From NCBI GenBank assembly GCA_964202455.1, contig CAXNIJ010000006.1, positions 5,184 to 69,183 of the forward strand: a stretch of 64,000 nucleotides of DNA, in the 5' to 3' direction. Made by a program: the position numbers and the translations under genes. Below the pieces are notes generated by a model. That model was given only the letters and a program-made list of their open reading frames with translations, was not told the DNA's origin and did no database searches. The stretch is from Candidatus Pacearchaeota archaeon. GTDB lineage: Archaea > Nanobdellota > Nanobdellia > Pacearchaeales > GW2011-AR1. Positions 2,926 to 47,261 of the stretch are shown here, piece by piece; positions within the stretch are counted from its first letter, which is position 1, and the number at the start of each line of letters is the position of its first letter.

Positions 2926-3615
2926 TTACTTTCTTTTTCCCATTAATTGCAGAAGATGAAGGAATAGGTTAATGAAGTCAAGATAGAGTGTGAGTGCACC
3001 TAAAATTGATTCCTTTGTATCCTCATCTGTGCCTTCATTTCCAAGAACATTATGTTCTTTGATTTTCTGAACATCATAAGCGGTAAGACCCATAAAGATA
3101 ATGACTCCTAGAATGGAAATTATAAAGTTGAATTGAGAACTTTGAAGGAATAAATTGAAAAGACTAGCTAAAATTATCCCAATAAGTCCAATGAATAGAA
3201 AAGTGCCTAACGAAGTAAGGTCTCTTTTTGTGACGTAGCCATATAAACTCAATAATCCGAAAAGTCCCGCAGTTAAGAAGAAAACAAAAGCAATTGAAGA
3301 AATTTCATAAACTATGAAAATTACAGATAATGTGAGTCCGGTAATAAATGAGTATAATATGAAACATAACTTGGCAATTCCTGCAGACATACTTTTAATC
3401 CAGGCAGATAAATAAATTACCAATCCTAGTTCAAGAATAATGAGGCCGAAGAATATCCATCTACTGCCAAAGATTAATGCTAATAGAGAGGGTGTTGATA
3501 TTGTTAAGTAAGCTGCAAGTGCAGAAATTAAAAGGCCAAAGAACATCCAGGCATAGACTTTCTGGAAAAATCTTTGTGTTTCTCCCTCATTATTTTTTAA
3601 ATTTCTTCGTGTCAT
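2926..3615 (-). CDS. BAX inhibitor-1/YccA (TMBIM) family membrane protein
   Basis: Seven hydrophobic segments. N-terminal FFQKVYAWMFFGLLISALAAY and C-terminal LGALTLYLDFINLFLHLLQLMG match the family pattern. Confidence 0.8.
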   Translation of the reverse strand: MTRRNLKNNEGETQRFFQKVYAWMFFGLLISALAAYLTISTPSLLALIFGSRWIFFGLIILELGLVIYLSAWIKSMSAGIAKLCFILYSFITGLTLSVIFIVYEISSIAFVFFLTAGLFGLLSLYGYVTKRDLTSLGTFLFIGLIGIILASLFNLFLQSSQFNFIISILGVIIFMGLTAYDVQKIKEHNVLGNEGTDEDTKESILGALTLYLDFINLFLHLLQLMGKRK

Positions 3616-19036: not shown

Positions 19037-22000
19037 ATGAATGAATTTAATGTAGCAATACAGAAAAAAGTAGGACCATGTGTTATTCTTGCTGGTGCTG
19101 GGACCGGAAAGACACATGCAATTGTAGAAAAGATAAAATATTTAATTGAACATAATCTCTATGAACCTGAAAAGATTGTATGTATTACTTTTTCTAATGA
19201 GGCAGCTAATAATTTACTTTTAAGAGTGCAGAAGAGTTTACATTTACAAGCTGGAAAAGAGCCAATTATAAAGACATTTCATGCTTTCTCTGCTGATATT
19301 TTAAGAAAGCATGGAGAGAATATTGGAATTAGTGAAAAATTTAAAATTCTTGATCCTGATCAGGCGATGGTAGTTTTACATAGAAATCTGAAAGTGCATG
19401 TAAATTATTGCCAGAAATATATTGGGACTATTGGAACAGCAAAAGATCTGGGAATTAGTTTAGATAATTTTAGAGAATATCTAGATAGAAAAATGAAAGA
19501 ATATGATGGAATAGATTTACAGAAAAGGATTGAAAGTTTGAATTTCGAACTTCAAACTCTTCATTTAAGACAAACTACAAATAAGAAGAAATTTCTGGTT
19601 GAAGAAATTAAAGTAATTAGGCAGATACTCGAGATAAAGAAATTTGTGTCTTCATGGAATGCCTATGAAAAAATGAAAATAAAAGGAAATTATCAAGATT
19701 ATTCCGATCTCAATGCTAATGCTCTAAGATTACTTGAGAAATTTCCTGAGATTTCTCAAGATTACTCATATGTTATTGTTGATGAATTTCAGGATACAAA
19801 TAAATTGCAGCTTGATTTCCTTGTTAAACTTGCACCCCATAAAAATATTACTATCGTGGGAGATATGAATCAGAGTATTTATCGATTTCGTGGAGCATAT
19901 AGCAAAAATTTAGATTTTTTTAAGAAAGAGTTTAATGTTTTAGATAGTGAAGTATTTACTCTTTCACACTCATATCGCTCTCCAAATAGTGTTTTACGAA
20001 TTGCACATCAATTGATATCAAAAAATTATAATTCAATTGATGAATGTTTTTTTGTTGAGAACGCACATCAAAGAGAAGGAGAGAAGGTAGAAATTTTTGA
20101 ATTGAAAGATATGAAAGAAGAAACTAGAAAGGTGATTGAATTAGTCCAGAGAGAAAGAGATAAGGGGGTTCAACTGGAAGAGATTTGTGTTATTTTTAGA
20201 ACACATCAATACGGGAGAATGATTAAACGTTCACTAGAGTATGCGGGAATTCCATATTATGCAGTTTCTCGTGCTTCATTAATAAAGCAAAAATCTGTAA
20301 AAACTATTTATGATTATTTAATTATTTTGGATAAGTTGAAAAAAGGATCTAATGGAGGAGAACAAGCTTGGTGGGATTTATTATATTTGATGAATTTTTC
20401 TAGTGAAGATTTGATGGTACTTGGAAAGAATATTCAGAAATTGTCTAAGAAGAATAGAAGAGTTGAGGGAGAAACAGTGAAAATTATTGAGAAAGAAGAA
20501 GGCGGTGCGTTTTCCTCTTTATTTATGGATAGTTTGAGAAGAGTTAAATTAAGTGATTCTGGAATGCTCGCTATAAAGATTCTTCTTGAGAAGATACAAC
20601 TTATGATGCCCTTACTTGATAAACCTCTCTCTGAGGCATTACAAGAAATGTATAAACTTTCAGGATTATTAAATGAACAGAGAACTCTTGAAGAAAAAGA
20701 AGTGATGATGAATTTACAGAAATTTTATGACGTTGCTAAAATGCATGAAGACATCTACGATTCTGATGTTTCTAATTTTCTTTATTATTTAGAGGTATTG
20801 CAGAATTTAGGAATTGAAATTGAAGCAGCTAAACTTGAAGAGGCAGGAGTTAGACTAATGACTTGTCATGCTACTAAAGGTTTGGAATATCAAACCATTA
20901 TTTTGACTAATTTTGCTCAAGGAAGATTTCCAATTGAAAGATATATCGGAAATTCACTTATACCTACTGAACTGCTTCCAGAAGTAAGAGAAGAATTGAA
21001 GAACATTTCTGTTGATGAGAAAGAAGATTTTGTGATAAATTATGAAAGACACCATCAGCTTCTAGAAGAGAGGAGACTTGCATATGTTTCATTTACTCGC
21101 GCTAAAGAAAAACTTATTCTTACTCTTGCTAAAGAATATGGTGGGAAGAAGACCTCACCTTCAGTATTTCTTAGTGAATTTAATTATTTGCAAAATCCCG
21201 ATGTTTCTTTTGTAAAAGATGAAAATCAGCTTTATGTTGAACCTGAAGCGGAAATAAAGACCGGATTTCAATTTGCAAATTCTTTAGAATCCCAGAATTT
21301 TGATAATGTTCTTAATACTCTTGCGCAAGAGAATGGAAAGAATAAAGAAGAAGAGAAAGTGCAAAGACTTTCCCCTTCTGCCCTATTACTCTTTGATGAT
21401 TGTCAAAAAGAGTTTGAATATAAGTATATTTATCGAATGCCTGAAAGGAAGACTTTCTCTTGGGAAGCAATGCAACTAGGAAGTTTTGTTCATCTTGCTC
21501 TTGAAAAAGGGGTGGCTTTGAGACTACAAAATATTGAAGACTTCTTGTTTATGGCTAGACAACTAAGCATGAATGATGAATGGTCTGGAGTTGTTTTTGA
21601 AGAAGCAGAGACTTTAATTCGAGTGTTTTTTGAGAGGAATAAGGGCAAATATGATGAGAAGACAAAGACTGAACAATATTTGCCTTTGAAACTGGGAGAC
21701 GTTCAGTTTATGGGTTTTGCAGATAGAATTGATTTTCTTTCAGATGGAAGTATTTCTATTATTGATTATAAGACTGGGAAAACGCCTATCTCTCCCAAAG
21801 ATAGAGATTGGCAGTTAGGATTTTATGCACTTGCTGCTGGAGAGAAATATGGTCGAGTTAAGAAAGTTGTTTTGGATATGTTAAAGCAAGAGAAGCCTCT
21901 TGAATTTGAATTTGATGAAAAAGGAAATGCTACTTGCACCAGTTCAAAGTGGATTGATGGATTTAGTCTGCAAGAGGTTAAAAAGCAATTGATTGAAGCT

Positions 22001-22096
22001 GCTGAGGCGATCCAGAAGGCCTATAAGGAAGGATTTAAGGCTTGCAGTATTGAGAAGAATTGCGAGTTCTGTAATGAATACGTGTACGGCATATAA
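19037..22096 (+). CDS. UvrD/PcrA-type SF1 helicase fused to a C-terminal Cas4/AddB-like PD-(D/E)xK nuclease with a Cys cluster
   Basis: AGAGTGKTH (Walker A), VDEFQDTN, SYRSP, CHATKGLEYQ and VSFTRAKEKL. C-terminus has GFADRIDFLSDGSISIIDYKTGK (nuclease core) plus Cys at LLFDDCQ and C-x5-C-x2-C (CSIEKNCEFC). Confidence 0.85.
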   Translation: MNEFNVAIQKKVGPCVILAGAGTGKTHAIVEKIKYLIEHNLYEPEKIVCITFSNEAANNLLLRVQKSLHLQAGKEPIIKTFHAFSADILRKHGENIGISEKFKILDPDQAMVVLHRNLKVHVNYCQKYIGTIGTAKDLGISLDNFREYLDRKMKEYDGIDLQKRIESLNFELQTLHLRQTTNKKKFLVEEIKVIRQILEIKKFVSSWNAYEKMKIKGNYQDYSDLNANALRLLEKFPEISQDYSYVIVDEFQDTNKLQLDFLVKLAPHKNITIVGDMNQSIYRFRGAYSKNLDFFKKEFNVLDSEVFTLSHSYRSPNSVLRIAHQLISKNYNSIDECFFVENAHQREGEKVEIFELKDMKEETRKVIELVQRERDKGVQLEEICVIFRTHQYGRMIKRSLEYAGIPYYAVSRASLIKQKSVKTIYDYLIILDKLKKGSNGGEQAWWDLLYLMNFSSEDLMVLGKNIQKLSKKNRRVEGETVKIIEKEEGGAFSSLFMDSLRRVKLSDSGMLAIKILLEKIQLMMPLLDKPLSEALQEMYKLSGLLNEQRTLEEKEVMMNLQKFYDVAKMHEDIYDSDVSNFLYYLEVLQNLGIEIEAAKLEEAGVRLMTCHATKGLEYQTIILTNFAQGRFPIERYIGNSLIPTELLPEVREELKNISVDEKEDFVINYERHHQLLEERRLAYVSFTRAKEKLILTLAKEYGGKKTSPSVFLSEFNYLQNPDVSFVKDENQLYVEPEAEIKTGFQFANSLESQNFDNVLNTLAQENGKNKEEEKVQRLSPSALLLFDDCQKEFEYKYIYRMPERKTFSWEAMQLGSFVHLALEKGVALRLQNIEDFLFMARQLSMNDEWSGVVFEEAETLIRVFFERNKGKYDEKTKTEQYLPLKLGDVQFMGFADRIDFLSDGSISIIDYKTGKTPISPKDRDWQLGFYALAAGEKYGRVKKVVLDMLKQEKPLEFEFDEKGNATCTSSKWIDGFSLQEVKKQLIEAAEAIQKAYKEGFKACSIEKNCEFCNEYVYGI

Positions 22097-22210
22097 ATGC
22101 TGTATTCATTACAGTACCTCGAACTTTTAAAAGTGTTGAGGTTTTGTAATAAGTAGGTTTATGGAATGTAAAATTAATCATTGCAAAAAAGCAATATTCA
22201 AAAAGATAAG

Positions 22211-22262
22211 TCAAGAATTCATTTCATAGAATTCTTGAATGCTTCAAGAACCAAAGTTCTTG
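22211..22262. repeat. Two tandem intergenic hairpins of the TCAAGAA/TTCTTGA family
   Basis: TCAAGAATTC-atttcata-GAATTCTTGA and TTCAAGAAC-caaa-GTTCTTGG. Confidence 0.6.
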
Positions 22263-22747: not shown

Positions 22748-23678
22748 GACATATGTCCTACCACCCTAAAATAGCTTATCGAATGCAAAATAAATGTCTG
22801 CTGGGACTTTCCCATACAGACTTGTATGAGGTCTGAAATGATTATATCTCATTCTAAATGTTTGTAAATCATTATTACAAAAGGGCATTTCCATATCCAT
22901 TGTTTGAAACAATCTTTCTACTTTTCCAGTTGTTGTTGGACTATGAATTGCTGAACGAATATGTTTAATCCCTCTTCTTCTACACCAAGTATCAAACTTA
23001 CTTTTCTCACTCGTCAATCCATATACACTTCCATTATCAGTTAAAATTTCTCTTGGTTTTCCATGAGACTTAATCAGTTCATCTAAGGCAATTATCACAT
23101 CATCAGTTGTAATATTCTTTAGTTGAATCAGTGCTAAAGAATATCTGGAGCAATCATCTATGATCGATAGAGTATAGCAGTATCCCTTTTCTTGTTCGTC
23201 TGTATGGTCTATTTGCCATAGAGAGTTAGGATGTTCTCTCTGCCAACGAATATATTTTATGCGTTTTCTCCTTCTTGTTGATGGCCTACATAGGTTGTTA
23301 TTAGATATAACTCGCTTAATAGTAGAAATAGAAACTTCTTCTATTCTTGATTTAATTTTATCAGCACTCCATCCAGTTCTATTTCTGATTGAGATAATTT
23401 TATCTTCAACTTCTTGATTTATCTTATAATGGATAGTTTTTGGTCTTTTTGATTTATCTCTCAAGTCCCATTCATTAGTTTCTAATCTTTTACTCCATCT
23501 TTTTAAAGTTCTTATTGTAACTTCATAACTAAACTTTACAAGAATAATCTTCCTACATGGATTATATGAATTACCTTGAATTCTTAGCTTAAAGAATTCT
23601 TTTCTAATCTCTTCTTTCTTCATTAAATATGAAATAAATCATTGCAGAACTAATTTTCGGTTGCTAGTGACATATGTC
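22748..23678 (-). mobile_element. IS element (IS481/IS3-like, single DDE transposase) with GACATATGTC-containing termini
   Basis: The transposase ORF is flanked by GACATATGTCCTACCACC (left) and the reverse complement of GGTTGCTAGTGACATATGTC (right). This is an imperfect inverted repeat. I found no clear target-site duplication. Confidence 0.55.
22766..23623 (-). CDS. DDE transposase (HTH plus rve integrase core)
   Basis: WQIDHTD, ILTDNGSVY and HSPTTTGKVERLFQT form a D, D, E triad with rve-like spacing. N-terminal HTH-like region. Confidence 0.85.
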   Translation of the reverse strand: MKKEEIRKEFFKLRIQGNSYNPCRKIILVKFSYEVTIRTLKRWSKRLETNEWDLRDKSKRPKTIHYKINQEVEDKIISIRNRTGWSADKIKSRIEEVSISTIKRVISNNNLCRPSTRRRKRIKYIRWQREHPNSLWQIDHTDEQEKGYCYTLSIIDDCSRYSLALIQLKNITTDDVIIALDELIKSHGKPREILTDNGSVYGLTSEKSKFDTWCRRRGIKHIRSAIHSPTTTGKVERLFQTMDMEMPFCNNDLQTFRMRYNHFRPHTSLYGKVPADIYFAFDKLF

Positions 23679-30381: not shown

Positions 30382-30699
30382 TTAGAAATTTTCTTGAACT
30401 AATTTTAATATTTGGTCTTTGGACATTGCACCACTATGTGCAAAGACCATTTTTCCATCTTTAAAGAACATGCTTGTAGGTATACTCATAACATTAAACT
30501 TATCTGATAATTCGAAATGATCCTCTACATTAACTTTTCCAAAATGGACTTTTCCTTTTAGTTCTCTTGCAGCCGCTTCAAATTCCGGAGCCATCATCTT
30601 ACATGGTCCGCACCAGCTTGCCCAAAAATCTACGACCCAGTTTCCTTTTTTTATTGATTTGTCAAAATCTTGCGTTGTTAATTCTATTGCGTCACTCAT
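30382..30699 (-). CDS. trxA: Thioredoxin
   Basis: FWASWCGPCK active site. Internal Met (MSDAIEL) preferred as start. Confidence 0.9.
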   Translation of the reverse strand: MSDAIELTTQDFDKSIKKGNWVVDFWASWCGPCKMMAPEFEAAARELKGKVHFGKVNVEDHFELSDKFNVMSIPTSMFFKDGKMVFAHSGAMSKDQILKLVQENF

Positions 30700-30763
30700 T
30701 TTATTCTTAATTATCCAGAAACCCACATTAATAAATCTTATGTATTAAAAAATAGTGTTATGT

Positions 30764-30878
30764 CAAGGAACTTGAAATAAACTCCAGCTTTTAAGCTGGA
30801 GATGGTTCCTTGAGCATCCAAAGCACGAGCGCTTATTCAAACCCCAACTTTTAAGTTGGGGTAGCGCATCGTGCTTTT
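30764..30878 (+). ncRNA. Candidate structured ncRNA, copy 1 (compact form); strand tentative
   Basis: Nested helices CAAGGAAC/GTTCCTTG, CTCCAGC/GCTGGAG, AGCACGA-GCGC/GCGC-A-TCGTGCT and CCCCAAC/GTTGGGG. Ends in a T-run. Long identical blocks are shared with 31509-31727. Confidence 0.5.
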
Positions 30879-30925
30879 GATATTAAATAAATTTAATTTC
30901 CGTAGTTGTTTTGTTATTTGCTACA

Positions 30926-30976
30926 TCGAGGATTACCTAATCCTTGACGGGGGGGGTTTTCGTCAAGTTTCTTGAC
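30926..30976. repeat. Two intergenic hairpins related to the TCAAG-stem family
   Basis: TCGAGGATT-acct-AATCCTTGA and GTCAAG-ttt-CTTGAC, separated by a G8 run. Confidence 0.5.
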
Positions 30977-30986
30977 ACGAAAAATT

Positions 30987-31400
30987 TTATTGAATATAAT
31001 TTTCTAAATCGCAAGAAATATTATCATTTGGTGAACGTTTATCTTTAATTATCCAAAAATCAAAAGCTCTATCTGCAAGACTTTCTAAAATCTTATTACG
31101 TGTAAAGTCATATTTTTCATTAGAAAGATTTTCAAAAAACCCTCTTTCTTGATTATATCTAAATCCTTCTCTTCTAAGAGCAAAATGAGTTTCACGATCT
31201 AGATAGTTTTTAATTTCATTATTCTCGCCATCAAATAATCTACTTATCCCGTATTCTACATTTAATTCTCTTAAAAGATGAACTCCTAAATGATCAGTTA
31301 AATTTGCTGAGGGAAAAGGACTAAGAACTCTACCTAGTAAAATTTCAAATCTTTTTGTTAATACTGCTTCATCTTGATTTGAAAAATATGGAATATTCAT
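30987..31400 (-). CDS. Hypothetical protein (137 aa)
   Basis: ORF only. Confidence 0.5.
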   Translation of the reverse strand: MNIPYFSNQDEAVLTKRFEILLGRVLSPFPSANLTDHLGVHLLRELNVEYGISRLFDGENNEIKNYLDRETHFALRREGFRYNQERGFFENLSNEKYDFTRNKILESLADRAFDFWIIKDKRSPNDNISCDLENYIQ

Positions 31401-31508
31401 AGAAATTAATCATAGTTGAAGTATATAAATTTCATCGTGATTGATTGGTAGTTTAAGAAGAGTAATTGAAAATTATCTGCGGGTTTTAGTGCGTCTTCAT
31501 CTTGATGT

Positions 31509-31727
31509 CAATGAACTTGACGCAAACTCCAGCTCATCAAGAATCTGCTGATTCTTGAGTGCCATCAAGGACTTTCGTCCTTGAGGTTTAAGCTGGAGAT
31601 GGTTCCTTGAGCACGTCAAGAACGTTCAGTTCTTGAACGCCATCAGAAACCAAGAGTTTCTGAGGTCCAAAGCACGAGCGCTTATTCAAACCTCTGCTTT
31701 TAGCATGGGTGGCGCATCGTTTTTTTG
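31509..31727 (+). ncRNA. Candidate structured ncRNA, copy 2 (expanded form with two hairpin-pair insertions); strand tentative
   Basis: Shares AAACTCCAGC, AGCTGGAGATGGTTCCTTGAGCA, TCCAAAGCACGAGCGCTTATTCAAACC and GCGCATCGT with copy 1. Insertions at ~31533-31588 and ~31614-31666 each form two TCAAGRA-type hairpins. Ends in T7. Confidence 0.5.
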
Positions 31728-31736
31728 ATAAATAAT

Positions 31737-34619
31737 TTATTCCCCGCAACCGCTTCTAGTTGTCTGCTTGCACGAAGTGCAATAAATTGCACAGTTACCC
31801 ATGCGTTTTGCTGAACTTCCGCATTGAGGACAAACAAGGCCCTCATTACCAAAATCTTTTAAAGATTTTTGTTCCTCTGTAAGACTCAGAGTTGATTGTG
31901 ATTGTTCAAGAGAAACTGATTGAGGAGAAATTTCTATTAAATCTTCAGTTACGGAAGGAAGTTCTATTTCAACTTCTACTTTTTGAGCTTTTCCGAATGT
32001 TGCAATCATAAATTGCGCTACGTAGTCAATAATTGATGAAGCTGTACGAATCATAATTCTATTTTGATCGAGTATTCCCGGAGGAGTATTTCTTACAAAT
32101 CCAGATGGTTCGAACTTTTGATGTCTGAACTTATTAAAAAGAATTTCAACAGGAATTCCATATTGAAGATTTAGAGAGATCGAAGCTGCCCAGGCATCCA
32201 TGAGTCCTCTAATTGTTGAGCCTTCTTTACTCATAGTGATAAAAATTTCCCCAGGTTTACCATCATCGTAAAGCCCCACTGTGAGATATCCTTTATGATT
32301 TGCTATTTCAAAACGGTGAGTAATAGATTTACGCGTTTGAGGCATTTCTTGTTGTTGAATTCTTACTACTTGAGGGACTAGAGTTTGTTTTTTAACCATT
32401 TCACCTTCAGTCTTTTGAGTATTAAGTGGTTGACTGCGTTTACTATTCTCCCTATAAATTGCTACGGCTTTTAGGCCTTGTTCCCAGGCGAAAATATAGG
32501 CATCCATAATATCATCTACAGTTGCTTGCTCTGGTAAATTCACTGTTTTACTAATTGCTCCAGAGATAAATGGTTGAGTTACTGCCATCATTTTTATGTG
32601 GCCCTTGTAATGAATTGCTCTTTTTCCCTTTGCAGGTTTAAATGCACAATCAAATACAGGTAAATGTTCTTGGCGAATCCAAGGGGCACCTTCGATCATA
32701 TCGTTTTTGTCAATATATGCAATTATTTCTTGATTTTGCTCTTTGGTATATCCTAAAGCTGAAAGAGATATGTGTACTGAACGATTAACCATTTTTAACA
32801 TTCCTCCTCCTGAAAGAACTTTGTATTTTACTAGGGCGATATCTGGCTCTATTCCAGTAGTATCGCAATCCATCATGAATGCAATTGTGCCTGTTGGAGC
32901 CAATACGGTTGTCTGAGCGTTACGAAAACCAAATTTCTCCCCAAGTTCTATTGCTTCAGTCCATGAGTCCCAAGCTTCATTGACAAGGAACTTGAGATTT
33001 GAAGGAATTTTTGTTACTTGAATTTCTCTAACGTGTTCTTTATGCATATTCATCACTTGTAACATTGAAGATTTATTTTCTTGGAATCCTGGAAATGGTC
33101 CCATCAAAGCAGCTAATTCTCCAGATGTTTTGTATGCTTCTCCAGACATTATTGCTGTGATTGCGGCAGCTACTGCTCTTCCTTCTTCAGAATCATAAGG
33201 GAGACCTAAACTCATTAAAAGCGCGCCTAGATTTGCATATCCTAGACCTAGAGTCCTAAAAATGTGAGAGCGTTCTGCAATTTCTTGAGTAGGATAACTC
33301 GCCCCATCAATAATAATCTCCATGGAAGTAATAAAATGTCTAACTACTGCCTTAAATTTTTGAATATCAAAATTTCCATCTGGAGTTAGAAACTTCATTA
33401 AATTAATAGATGCAAGATTACAAGCCGTATCATCTAAAAATAAATATTCACTGCAGGGATTTGTAGCATTTATTCTTCCTGAATTTTTACAAGTGTGATA
33501 CTTTTGAATAACTCCATCACATTGAACTCCGGGATCCCCACATATCCAAGTGCCTTCTGCAATTGCACGCATTATATCTTTTGCTTTATAAGTTTCTATA
33601 GGTCTACCATCTGTTACAGCTTTTGTTTGCCATTCTCCGTCTTCTTTCACAGCATTCATGAATTCATCCGTAACTCTTACAGACATATTACAATTTTGGA
33701 AGAAAATACTACTATATGCCTCACCATTCATGCCTCCAGAGTATCCTTGTTCTATAAGCGCCCAGGCTTTTTTCTCTTCAGATTGTTTTGCACGGACGAA
33801 ATCCATAATATCTGGATGATCAACATTGAGAATTTCCATTTTTGCAGCTCTTCTTGTTTTTCCGCCAGATTTTATTATATTTGCATATGCATCATATCCC
33901 TTCATGAAGGATACTGGTCCAGAAGCTCTGCCTCCACCAGTTATCTTTTCTCTTGAACTGCGTAGAGTTGAACGATTACTTCCAGTGCCTGATCCTGCTT
34001 TGAATAATACTGCTTCGGCTGTTTGAACTTTTAAAATTGATTCCATATTATCTTGAATACCTAAGATAAAACATGCTGAACATTGTGGTCGATCATCCGA
34101 TTTTATTGCTTTTACTGCTTGATTTAACTCTACATCCCATTTCCAAGCAGATACTCCTCCTGCTTCTTTGTTATATTCCCAAATTCCCGCATTAAACCAT
34201 ACTGGAGAGTTGAACACACAAAGTTGATTTAGACAAATTGCTGCAATTTCTTCTTTGAGAATATTTGATTGATTTTCGTCAAAATATTTTTGGTTTAAAG
34301 CTTGTCTACCTATATATCTTGAGACTCTGCCAATTATTTTTTCTACCGAATCCTCTCTTTCTCCCTTGGCTTGATCTCCCCAAAAATATTTACTTCCAAC
34401 TACTTTAAGCGCCAGGGGACTCCAAAAATCTGGTCGTTTGACATTTGGTTGAGTGAAAATTGGTTTGCCCATATCATCAGTTACTTTTACATCTTCTGAT
34501 AACCATTTAATTGGATTACCATAAATATCGAATTCGTACGGGCTCTTGCCTTCAAAAGTAAATGTTCTAGAGATTTGCATTTTTCCTAGATTTAGTTGTT
34601 CTATTCTCTCAGGAGTCAT
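31737..34619 (-). CDS. nrdJ: Class II (adenosylcobalamin-dependent) ribonucleotide reductase with C-terminal Cys-rich Zn-ribbon tail
   Basis: 960 aa. NSPVWFNAG, ATNPCSEYLF (thiyl-radical Cys loop), TVLAPTGTI. Tail is CPQCGSSAKRMGNCAIYCTSCKQTTRSGCGE. Confidence 0.9.
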   Translation of the reverse strand: MTPERIEQLNLGKMQISRTFTFEGKSPYEFDIYGNPIKWLSEDVKVTDDMGKPIFTQPNVKRPDFWSPLALKVVGSKYFWGDQAKGEREDSVEKIIGRVSRYIGRQALNQKYFDENQSNILKEEIAAICLNQLCVFNSPVWFNAGIWEYNKEAGGVSAWKWDVELNQAVKAIKSDDRPQCSACFILGIQDNMESILKVQTAEAVLFKAGSGTGSNRSTLRSSREKITGGGRASGPVSFMKGYDAYANIIKSGGKTRRAAKMEILNVDHPDIMDFVRAKQSEEKKAWALIEQGYSGGMNGEAYSSIFFQNCNMSVRVTDEFMNAVKEDGEWQTKAVTDGRPIETYKAKDIMRAIAEGTWICGDPGVQCDGVIQKYHTCKNSGRINATNPCSEYLFLDDTACNLASINLMKFLTPDGNFDIQKFKAVVRHFITSMEIIIDGASYPTQEIAERSHIFRTLGLGYANLGALLMSLGLPYDSEEGRAVAAAITAIMSGEAYKTSGELAALMGPFPGFQENKSSMLQVMNMHKEHVREIQVTKIPSNLKFLVNEAWDSWTEAIELGEKFGFRNAQTTVLAPTGTIAFMMDCDTTGIEPDIALVKYKVLSGGGMLKMVNRSVHISLSALGYTKEQNQEIIAYIDKNDMIEGAPWIRQEHLPVFDCAFKPAKGKRAIHYKGHIKMMAVTQPFISGAISKTVNLPEQATVDDIMDAYIFAWEQGLKAVAIYRENSKRSQPLNTQKTEGEMVKKQTLVPQVVRIQQQEMPQTRKSITHRFEIANHKGYLTVGLYDDGKPGEIFITMSKEGSTIRGLMDAWAASISLNLQYGIPVEILFNKFRHQKFEPSGFVRNTPPGILDQNRIMIRTASSIIDYVAQFMIATFGKAQKVEVEIELPSVTEDLIEISPQSVSLEQSQSTLSLTEEQKSLKDFGNEGLVCPQCGSSAKRMGNCAIYCTSCKQTTRSGCGE

Positions 34620-35059
34620 CCTTTCACAAGCTCCTTAATTTCTTTTTTGAAATCTGAAATGTCGGTAAAATCCCTATAAACAGATGCAAAACGAATGTAT
34701 GCGACTTTATCTATTTTCTTTAATTCTTTAGAAACTAACTCTCCGATAAATCCTGATTTGACTTCTTTACCCTGTTTGAGCAATTTTTCTTCAATGATTG
34801 TTAGCATATGTTCTATTTTTTCGGTACTAATTGGCCTTTTTTCACAAGCCTTAATTATTCCTCTTTTTATTTTTTCACGGTCAAATTCTTCCATCCCTCC
34901 ATCCTTCTTTATGACTCGGAGATTGATTCTTTCGACCTCTTCAAGAGTGTTAAAGCGTTTTGCACACTTAAGACACTCTCTTCTTCTTCGGGTAAGTTTA
35001 TTCACATCCCTTTTATCTACCACTTTGGTTTCTTCATGGACACAATAGGGACATTGCAT
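34616..35059 (-). CDS. nrdR: NrdR transcriptional repressor (Zn ribbon plus ATP-cone)
   Basis: MQCPYCVHEETKVVDKR...RRRECLKCAKRFNTLE and the ATP-cone pattern. 4-nt overlap with nrdJ. Confidence 0.9.
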   Translation of the reverse strand: MQCPYCVHEETKVVDKRDVNKLTRRRRECLKCAKRFNTLEEVERINLRVIKKDGGMEEFDREKIKRGIIKACEKRPISTEKIEHMLTIIEEKLLKQGKEVKSGFIGELVSKELKKIDKVAYIRFASVYRDFTDISDFKKEIKELVKG

Positions 35060-43091: not shown

Positions 43092-44973
<1,882 letters not shown>

Positions 44974-46232: not shown

Positions 46233-47261
46233 CTATCTCTTAGACTTAGAATATTTCTTTGTAGATTTTTCAGTTTCAAGAATCATTTGGGCAACATCAA
46301 CTAGACGATGAGAATAGCCCCATTCATTGTCATACCACCCGGCAATACTAATCATATCGTCAATTACTTGAGTAAAATGAGAGTTGAATATTGCTGAATG
46401 AGTATTTCCAATTATATCGGTTGAGACCAGAGGTTCATCTGAATATTCTACAATGCCTTTGTAATCTGTTGATGCTTTTCTTTTGAATACTGCGTTGACA
46501 TCTCTTGGAGAAACTTTCTTTTCTACTTTAGCCACTATACTGGTAATTGAACCGTCTATAACTGGAACGCGTAGTGCATAGCCATCTATTTTTCCTTTTA
46601 GTTCTGGAATACTTTCCACTACTGAAATTGCCGCCCCAGATGTTGTAGGGATAATATTTATTGCCGCTGCCCTTCCGCGAGCCATATCCCCCTTATCATG
46701 AGAATCTATTAGATGCTGTGTCGAAGTATATGCATGGGTTGTAATAAAAAATGCACTCTTTAGATTATAAGCTTCATGAAGAATTTTAATCATTGGCGCA
46801 GTGCAATTGGTTGTGCAACTTCCAGCAGAGATAATTTTATGTTCTTTTTTAAGAGACGCACCATTTACGCCTGGAATTATTGTGCAGTCAGCGTTTTTTG
46901 CAGGTGCTGAAATTAGAACTTTCTTTGCTCCTGCCTTAATATGTTTCTCTGCATCTTCTTTTTTTGTGAATAATCCTGTACATTCCACAACTAAATCAAT
47001 TTCTTCTTTTTTCCATGGAAGCTTAAGAGGATCTGTCTCATGAACTGTGAGGAACTTTCTTTTTCCTATTGTCAAATATTTTCCGTCGTGAGAAATTGGT
47101 TCTTGGAAAGGAGTATGAATAGAATCGTGCTTTAAAGTGTAAACAACATAATCTGGATCTCCGAGTTCATTTATTACAATATTCCAAGGAACATTTCTCT
47201 TTAAACAGGCTTGAAGAAAGAGCTTACCGATCCTACCTAGACCATTAATAGCTACGTTCAT
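46233..47261 (-). CDS. gap: Glyceraldehyde-3-phosphate dehydrogenase, type I (bacterial/eukaryal-like)
   Basis: VAINGLGRIGK, SAGSCTTNC (active-site Cys), WYDNEWGYS. Confidence 0.9.
   Translation of the reverse strand: MNVAINGLGRIGKLFLQACLKRNVPWNIVINELGDPDYVVYTLKHDSIHTPFQEPISHDGKYLTIGKRKFLTVHETDPLKLPWKKEEIDLVVECTGLFTKKEDAEKHIKAGAKKVLISAPAKNADCTIIPGVNGASLKKEHKIISAGSCTTNCTAPMIKILHEAYNLKSAFFITTHAYTSTQHLIDSHDKGDMARGRAAAINIIPTTSGAAISVVESIPELKGKIDGYALRVPVIDGSITSIVAKVEKKVSPRDVNAVFKRKASTDYKGIVEYSDEPLVSTDIIGNTHSAIFNSHFTQVIDDMISIAGWYDNEWGYSHRLVDVAQMILETEKSTKKYSKSKR

Follow-up and report, generated by a model that had tools for sequence, protein, structure and literature searches.

A dispersed, strand-polar hairpin repeat in a Pacearchaeota genome, probably a non-autonomous element of the REP/PATE kind

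Two related structured segments, copy A (30760..30881, plus strand) and copy B (31505..31729, plus strand), turned out to be 2 of ~25 dispersed, near-identical copies in a 950-kb archaeal genome, which points to a small mobile DNA rather than a pair of RNA genes. Positions refer to the window, i.e., the whole 64,000-nt stretch of DNA that was analyzed. The sequence-only reading had taken the two segments for paralogous RNA genes, a view that the analysis does not support. With a probability of roughly 0.72, we consider the repeat to be mobile DNA (or DNA that was mobile until recently) that is non-autonomous and that a trans-acting enzyme recognizes in its folded, single-stranded form. It is best read as a strand-polar, non-autonomous hairpin repeat of the REP/PATE kind, in a so far undescribed archaeal variant. 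Judged from genome sequences, the copies appear to be members of a family of small, strand-polar, non-coding repeats that extends over an order of DPANN (Pacearchaeota-type) archaea. A limited literature search found no published description of the repeat family.

Copy A is a complete 122-nt core without insertions, running from ATGTCAAGG to TTTTGAT. It comprises hairpin I (~30760-30817) and hairpin II (~30816-30881), and it is preceded by TT at 30758-30759, which is usually conserved among the copies. The R1 covariance model, built from 34 copies, matched copy A over its full length (138.6 bits, E 2e-28), and copies on contigs C1, C4, and C7 are 99-100% identical to it. Copy B, as delimited by alignment, fold, and R1, is the core with two nested 52-nt insertions and a variant terminal hairpin; R1 yielded split matches here, at 31503-31612 and 31638-31729. 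The long blocks noticed earlier as common to A and B, including the 27-nt TCCAAAGCACGAGCGCTTATTCAAACC, were recovered by pairwise alignment and by a repeat finder, but the limits first drawn for the copies were slightly narrow. A further family member, copy A' (30924..30978, minus strand), is truncated or degenerate; it was recognized by its inverted-repeat arms and a 5'-end pattern match (C6:36146-36161). In the sequence, its 5' end GTGTCAAGAAACTTGACGAAAAC can be read, together with a C-run and a single imperfect CGTCAAGG mini-hairpin; copies A' and A are arranged tail-to-tail.

The genes around the copies are read from the minus strand. They are the thioredoxin gene trx (30382..30699; Pfam PF00085, 1.6e-29), a resident 137-aa hypothetical gene between copies A and B, outside the repeat (30987..31400), and nrdJ for the class II ribonucleotide reductase (31737..34619; Pfam PF02867, 1.9e-135). 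After nrdJ, an ATP-cone/NrdR match marks nrdR (34616-35059). The 137-aa protein had no match in Pfam, NCBIfam, or PDB. A 36%-identical homologue is encoded directly after nrdJ in a relative (G016), with no repeat there. The trx-nrdJ spacer holds a different gene in almost every species. A TATA-like box, TTAATAAAT, occurs at ~30728-30737, between the trx ATG and copy A. The TTAATAAA(T/C) box ~30 nt upstream of the trx ATG is conserved in eight genomes (the present one and those of loci L060, L061, L066, L069, L071, L073, and L075), and it is probably the TATA box of trx. In L060 (G016, 3175-3264) and L066 (G006, 347-433), only the first ~30 thioredoxin residues match, including the CxxC region; the ORF appears to continue into unrelated sequence, so it may encode a different thioredoxin-fold fusion protein. 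The nrdJ frames are 1344 and 1332 aa long in L061 (G007) and L062 (G011) and 944-966 aa in most others, which suggests an intein or other large insertion in the two longer frames.

Copy A folds into two adjacent long hairpins (-62.1 kcal/mol, z -10.8 vs shuffles), and the same nested helices are present in copy B (-87.4 kcal/mol, z -6.4). In each hairpin, an outer stem is followed by an asymmetric internal loop that ends in AAAC, and an inner stem of 7-9 bp is capped by a loop of the TTTTAA type. When 40 full copies from 11 species were aligned with MAFFT, 96.7% of the cells were found to pair, with double-sided changes in 20 of the 44 pairs; slid controls gave 33-45% pairing. The values were 96.2% and 36 of 43 pairs for 52 copies from ~45 genera, in an alignment that was fitted to the covariance model and leans towards structure. 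The earlier proposal that A and B share nested helices kept by compensatory changes was thereby supported. In the terminal hairpin of copy B (ACCTCTGC/GCATGGGT), the two double changes and the T.G pair described before are real, but a C x T mismatch had been overlooked. The loop of this hairpin is 1 nt shorter than in copy A. The invariant parts of the element are the 5'-T(T)ATGTCA end, the TTTTGAT-3' end, and the central GAGCATCCWAAA. Across ~45 genera, there is hardly any change in the unpaired blocks TTATGTCA, GAGCATCCWAAA, CAAAC, and TTTTGAT, and the stems drift. This very strong conservation could equally reflect a host function, a point to which we return below.

Copy B equals copy A plus two clean 52-nt insertions, at which no flanking base is duplicated. 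Insertion 1 (31535..31586, plus strand; alignment, C6:36720-36767) is located in the loop of inner hairpin 1. It is a head-to-tail pair of mini-hairpins, CATCAAGAATC..GATTCTTGAGTGC followed by CATCAAGGAC..GTCCTTGAGG. Insertion 2 (31614..31665, plus strand; alignment, C6:36799-36846) occupies the junction between hairpins I and II, at GAGCA^TCCAAAG, and is again a head-to-tail pair, CGTCAAGAAC..GTTCTTGAACGC followed by CATCAGAAAC..GTTTCTGAGG. Both insertions are built from TCAAGRA/TCAGAAAC mini-hairpins. Copy B is 104 nt longer because these mini-hairpins nest in the loops and the junction of the element, and the hairpin-pair insertions that had been suggested as the cause of the extra length are thus correct, one being in a loop and one at the junction.

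Mini-hairpins of this type are not confined to the 122-nt elements. About 80 with perfect stems were found in the genome, inside and outside the elements, with the form TCAAGRA..TYCTTGA or TCAGAAAC..GTTTCTGA. They are often paired head-to-tail, 6 nt apart. Their stems are 8-10 bp long and start with AA..TT, and the loops have 3-9 nt, mostly 3-6 nt. The tag is CGTC in 42 cases, CATC in 23, and TGTC in 6, with its TC base-paired, and the tails are GCGC, GTGC, and similar (GYGC). The 122-nt core itself starts with TGTC. Most of the remaining copies of the element either are recombinant or truncated or differ in how many mini-hairpins they carry at the same three places. A further mini-hairpin pair of the family, TCAAGAATTC..GAATTCTTGA then TTCAAGAAC..GTTCTTGG, is found at 22190-22260, in the spacer after the gene for a 1019-aa UvrD/PcrA-like helicase. 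It is adjoined by a small minus-strand ORF, which by eye resembles a glycine-rich RRM RNA-binding protein.

The copies are dispersed over the genome. Of the 12 contigs, 8 contain the 27-nt block, which is present 15-16 times in total. The 5' end GTCAAGGAAC was found ~22 times (once for the reversed control) and the 3' end GCGCATCGT 27 times (twice for the reversed control), giving ~22-27 elements with these ends. In the source lake metagenomes, the depth of the repeat words is ~29x the single-copy depth. Five insertion-free copies are 96-100% identical within the genome, and all family copies are intergenic. The sequence-only reading had weighed a dispersed repeat lacking structure-preserving variation against its own proposal; the blocks are indeed a dispersed repeat, but structure-preserving variation is present. 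In the upstream flanks, only T at -5 and TT at -2/-1 are conserved, and downstream there is a weak preference for WT. No target duplication was seen in the flanking sequences of 50 copies. Terminal inverted repeats are absent, since ATGTCAAGG... is no inverted copy of ...TTTTGAT. Metagenome contigs break at the repeats, and repeat-to-repeat joints were seen. No empty site, insertion polymorphism, or transposition event was detected in the metagenome contigs over the window and a 19-kb stretch with three copies.

Two short forms of 62 nt (C1:45009-45070 and C4:56391-56452) contain both termini and one AAAC inner hairpin, and the outer stems are lost. They seem to have arisen by deletion between the two inner hairpins, which are homologous. 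To our knowledge, deletion derivatives of transposable elements keep the termini and lose the helices in this manner, and functional RNAs do not. Together with the clean insertions, the end-retaining short forms are signs of an element defined by its ends.

The host genome encodes TBP, and the TBP search matched only archaea among the controls, which identifies the genome as archaeal. Within it, the window also holds bacterial-type genes for GroEL (43092-44720, 777 bits), type I GAPDH (46233-47261), the PcrA/UvrD-like helicase (19037-22096), and NrdR (34616-35059). BLAST detected the repeat family in 11-12 of the 17 congeners, and five lack it. Each of the other species has its own sequence variant, with 74-89% identity. 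Within the taxonomic family of the host, 47 of 151 genomes, representing 46 of 150 genera, gave multicopy R1 matches of full length, and R1 also matched in two other families of the order. The distribution is patchy, amounting to 31% of the genera, and the copy number ranges from 1 to >23 per genome. The repeat is absent at orthologous sites: in 16 of 16 congeners, no copy lies within 1.5 kb of nrdJ. In the closest congener, 57 nt separate nrdJ from the homologue of the 137-aa gene, and this interval contains no repeat. The trx-nrdJ spacers of the relatives are too diverged, or contain other genes, for filled and empty junctions to be aligned.

The strongly covarying fold and the polarity of the element, with its conserved non-palindromic single-stranded blocks, would also suit a family of small structured RNAs, each of the many copies being an RNA gene or a transcribed module, in which the plus strand would give a two-hairpin RNA ending at the T-run. 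Many copies end in a hairpin followed by T4-T7, an archaeal termination signal, and the TTTTAAG hairpin loops resemble a TATA box in a host that is archaeal and has TBP. We nevertheless regard this explanation as improbable. The reverse complement of copy A folds as well as the plus strand (-61.2 kcal/mol, z -9.4). A functional RNA is expected to tolerate G.U far more than A.C. The mispairs of the repeat, however, are rare and symmetric, G.T and A.C numbering 13 and 11 in alignment A2 and 24 and 27 in alignment A4 (p=0.78); in the latter, G.T accounts for 1.2% of the cells, a share that seems to us uncommonly small for structured RNA. The assignment of the RNA to the plus strand is therefore not sustained. 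The 3' T-run, which had been cited in its favor, is one arm of a covarying stem (AAAGCACGA/TCGTGCTTT, AAAAAACGA/TCGTTTTTT, etc.) with a length varying from T4 to T7, and it is no conserved terminator. Upstream of the copies, the few conserved T positions do not amount to a promoter-like block. Orientation is random with respect to the genes: by crude ORF calls, ~11 copies are antisense and ~12 sense relative to co-directional neighbor genes. As RNA genes, half of the copies would thus be antisense read-through, and the antisense arrangement described for A and B is not a rule of the family. Non-syntenic positions in congeners, the patchy distribution among the genera, the deletion derivatives that retain ends and not helices, and the lack of an Rfam match also speak against RNA genes.

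The RNA searches agree with the statement that no known RNA is recognizable here. At the gathering threshold, Rfam returned only two tRNAs in the 64-kb window, and a permissive scan of 30600-31900 gave only chance snoRNA-type matches (E>1). The internal loops were inspected for K-turn, C/D-box, H/ACA, BHB-intron, and IS110 bridge-RNA features, and none of these fits. The 3' side of each internal loop is just 2 nt (T+T/G), not GA. A bacterial promoter/terminator logic, for which TTGACA in the minus-strand sequence of the 5' end was considered, was set aside on the grounds that the genome is archaeal and encodes TBP.

Returning to the mobile DNA element, we infer mobility, a single-strand mechanism, and a partner enzyme. 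The enzyme would act in trans and recognize the element as folded single-stranded DNA, as with REP/REPIN and IS200/IS605-derived elements. The element would land in AT-rich intergenic DNA, with neither terminal inverted repeats nor a target duplication. The smaller CGTC/CATC-tagged TCAAGRA mini-hairpins, putatively of the same superfamily, nest in its loops and junction.

Candidates for the partner were sought as Y1_Tnp (PF01797; IS200/RAYT) in the genus and the family, and as the TnpB domain, IS110, and Y2_Tnp in the genus. This 89%-complete genome contains no Y1_Tnp candidate; Y2_Tnp, IS110, and the TnpB domain are absent from it and rare in the genus, and no candidate enzyme follows the distribution of the repeat. 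Y1 is present in 47 of the 151 relatives. Both the repeat and Y1 occur in 20 of these genomes, the repeat only in 27, Y1 only in 27, and neither in 77, a weak co-occurrence (odds ratio 2.1, p=0.057). When the Y1 loci of the relatives were examined with BLAST and R1, a repeat was found near 1 of 24, 290 nt beyond the ORF and outside the IS, and this looks like chance. An intact IS200 in G003 ends in unrelated hairpins of its own, CCCTAAGG-TCTTG-CCTTAGGG. Separately, the window contains an ORF for an IS481-family DDE transposase at 22766-23623 (minus strand), which is single-copy in the genome and scores 191 bits in NCBIfam, below the cut-off of 224. Its inverted ends, TGTC(A)CTA..CC, lie around 22745 and 23668, within GACATATGTC palindromes. 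This IS481-like element was rejected as the partner, its TGTC... inverted ends being unmatched by the 3' end of the repeat. It is possible, though on the doubtful side, that the repeats belong to an undescribed DPANN mobility system, in which a two-hairpin, strand-polar element with invariant ends would be moved as single-stranded DNA by an enzyme unrelated to Y1, Y2, IS110, or TnpB, or by one from a virus or host partner. Such a system, if real, would have been kept throughout a whole order of organisms with ultra-small genomes. As a bolder alternative, the repeats could constitute a very abundant class of self-contained structured RNAs.

That no transposase was found would also fit domesticated DNA sites, as known for some bacterial REP/BIME. 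The copies would then be binding or structure-forming sites of a chromosomal protein acting in topology, replication/segregation, or recombination, or else insulators between genes, and gene conversion would keep them dispersed and homogeneous. The persistence of the invariant blocks over ~45 genera while the stems drift is in accord with such a role. The strand-symmetric mispairs are consistent with duplex or cruciform DNA. Copies also sit tight against gene ends, copy B at 7 nt from the nrdJ stop codon and copy A' at 9 nt from that of the 137-aa gene. On the other hand, ~69% of the genera in the taxonomic family and the five congeners mentioned above do without the repeat, so it cannot be essential. 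Its positions are not conserved between species, its copy number varies widely among genomes, and no candidate binding protein was identified. We hold this explanation to be quite unlikely and retain the mobile element as the preferred one.

DPANN genomes, at ~1 Mb, are thought to be under strong streamlining. Despite this, ~25 copies of the 122-nt repeat and ~80 mini-hairpins have been retained here, and the architecture recurs in about a third of the family's genera. These findings raise the question of what moves or maintains hairpin repeats without the usual HUH transposases. The repeats also have practical consequences. They break metagenome assemblies, as contigs end there, and they can be misread as regulatory leaders or novel RNA genes. 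The R1 model can be used to mask them.

Among known systems, a classical MITE would have terminal inverted repeats and a target-site duplication; both were tested and are absent here. A MITE census reported the highest MITE density among archaea for DPANN, giving no family description (PMC11602168). PATEs are non-autonomous IS200/IS605 derivatives found, e.g., in Haloquadratum (PMC3119063). Like the present repeat, they are strand-polar, occur in archaea, carry subterminal hairpins at either end, and lack terminal inverted repeats and target-site duplications. In contrast to PATEs, the ends of our repeat are unrelated to any resident IS200-like element, and TnpA and TnpB are absent from the genome.

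The bacterial REP/BIME/REPIN sequences are mobilized by RAYT, a Y1 HUH transposase (PMC3116915, PMC2817692). Like REP/REPIN, the present repeats are short, intergenic, and palindromic, they occur in tens of copies with covarying stems, and they form mosaics of units. A conserved unpaired tag beside the stem and recognition thought to occur as single-stranded hairpins are further likenesses. The differences are considerable. The tag is CGTC, CATC, or TGTC instead of GTAG. The units are arranged head-to-tail with a 6-nt spacer, whereas REPINs are inverted doublets. The element is a 122-nt composite of two hairpins, compared with 20-40 nt for a REP unit. The host is an archaeon; its genome has no RAYT/Y1 gene, and in the relatives the repeat does not flank the Y1 genes. 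BOX elements of Streptococcus pneumoniae have conserved 5' and 3' modules and a variable number of internal hairpin modules, which resembles the modular build of our repeat. Their sequences and host are unrelated, however, and BOX modules are not known to nest in hairpin loops.

The mini-hairpins can be compared with the CGTC-tagged REPs, which include Rickettsia RPE-4/-6 and Neisseria dRS3 and whose published occurrence is limited to five bacterial phyla (Di Nocera et al. 2013, PMC3733652). Those have an unpaired CGTC/TGTC tag, a stem of 8-9 bp, and a loop of 4-5 nt, and no transposase is associated with them (PMC3733652). Both carry these tag letters and have broadly similar stem and loop sizes, lack a transposase, and occur in reduced genomes. 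Here, however, the TC of the tag takes part in base pairing, the tails are GYGC instead of the 3-nt CCA type, and the dimers are head-to-tail with a 6-nt spacer, whereas the CGTC REPs are mostly head-to-head. The resemblance of the mini-hairpins to the CGTC REPs may be convergent.
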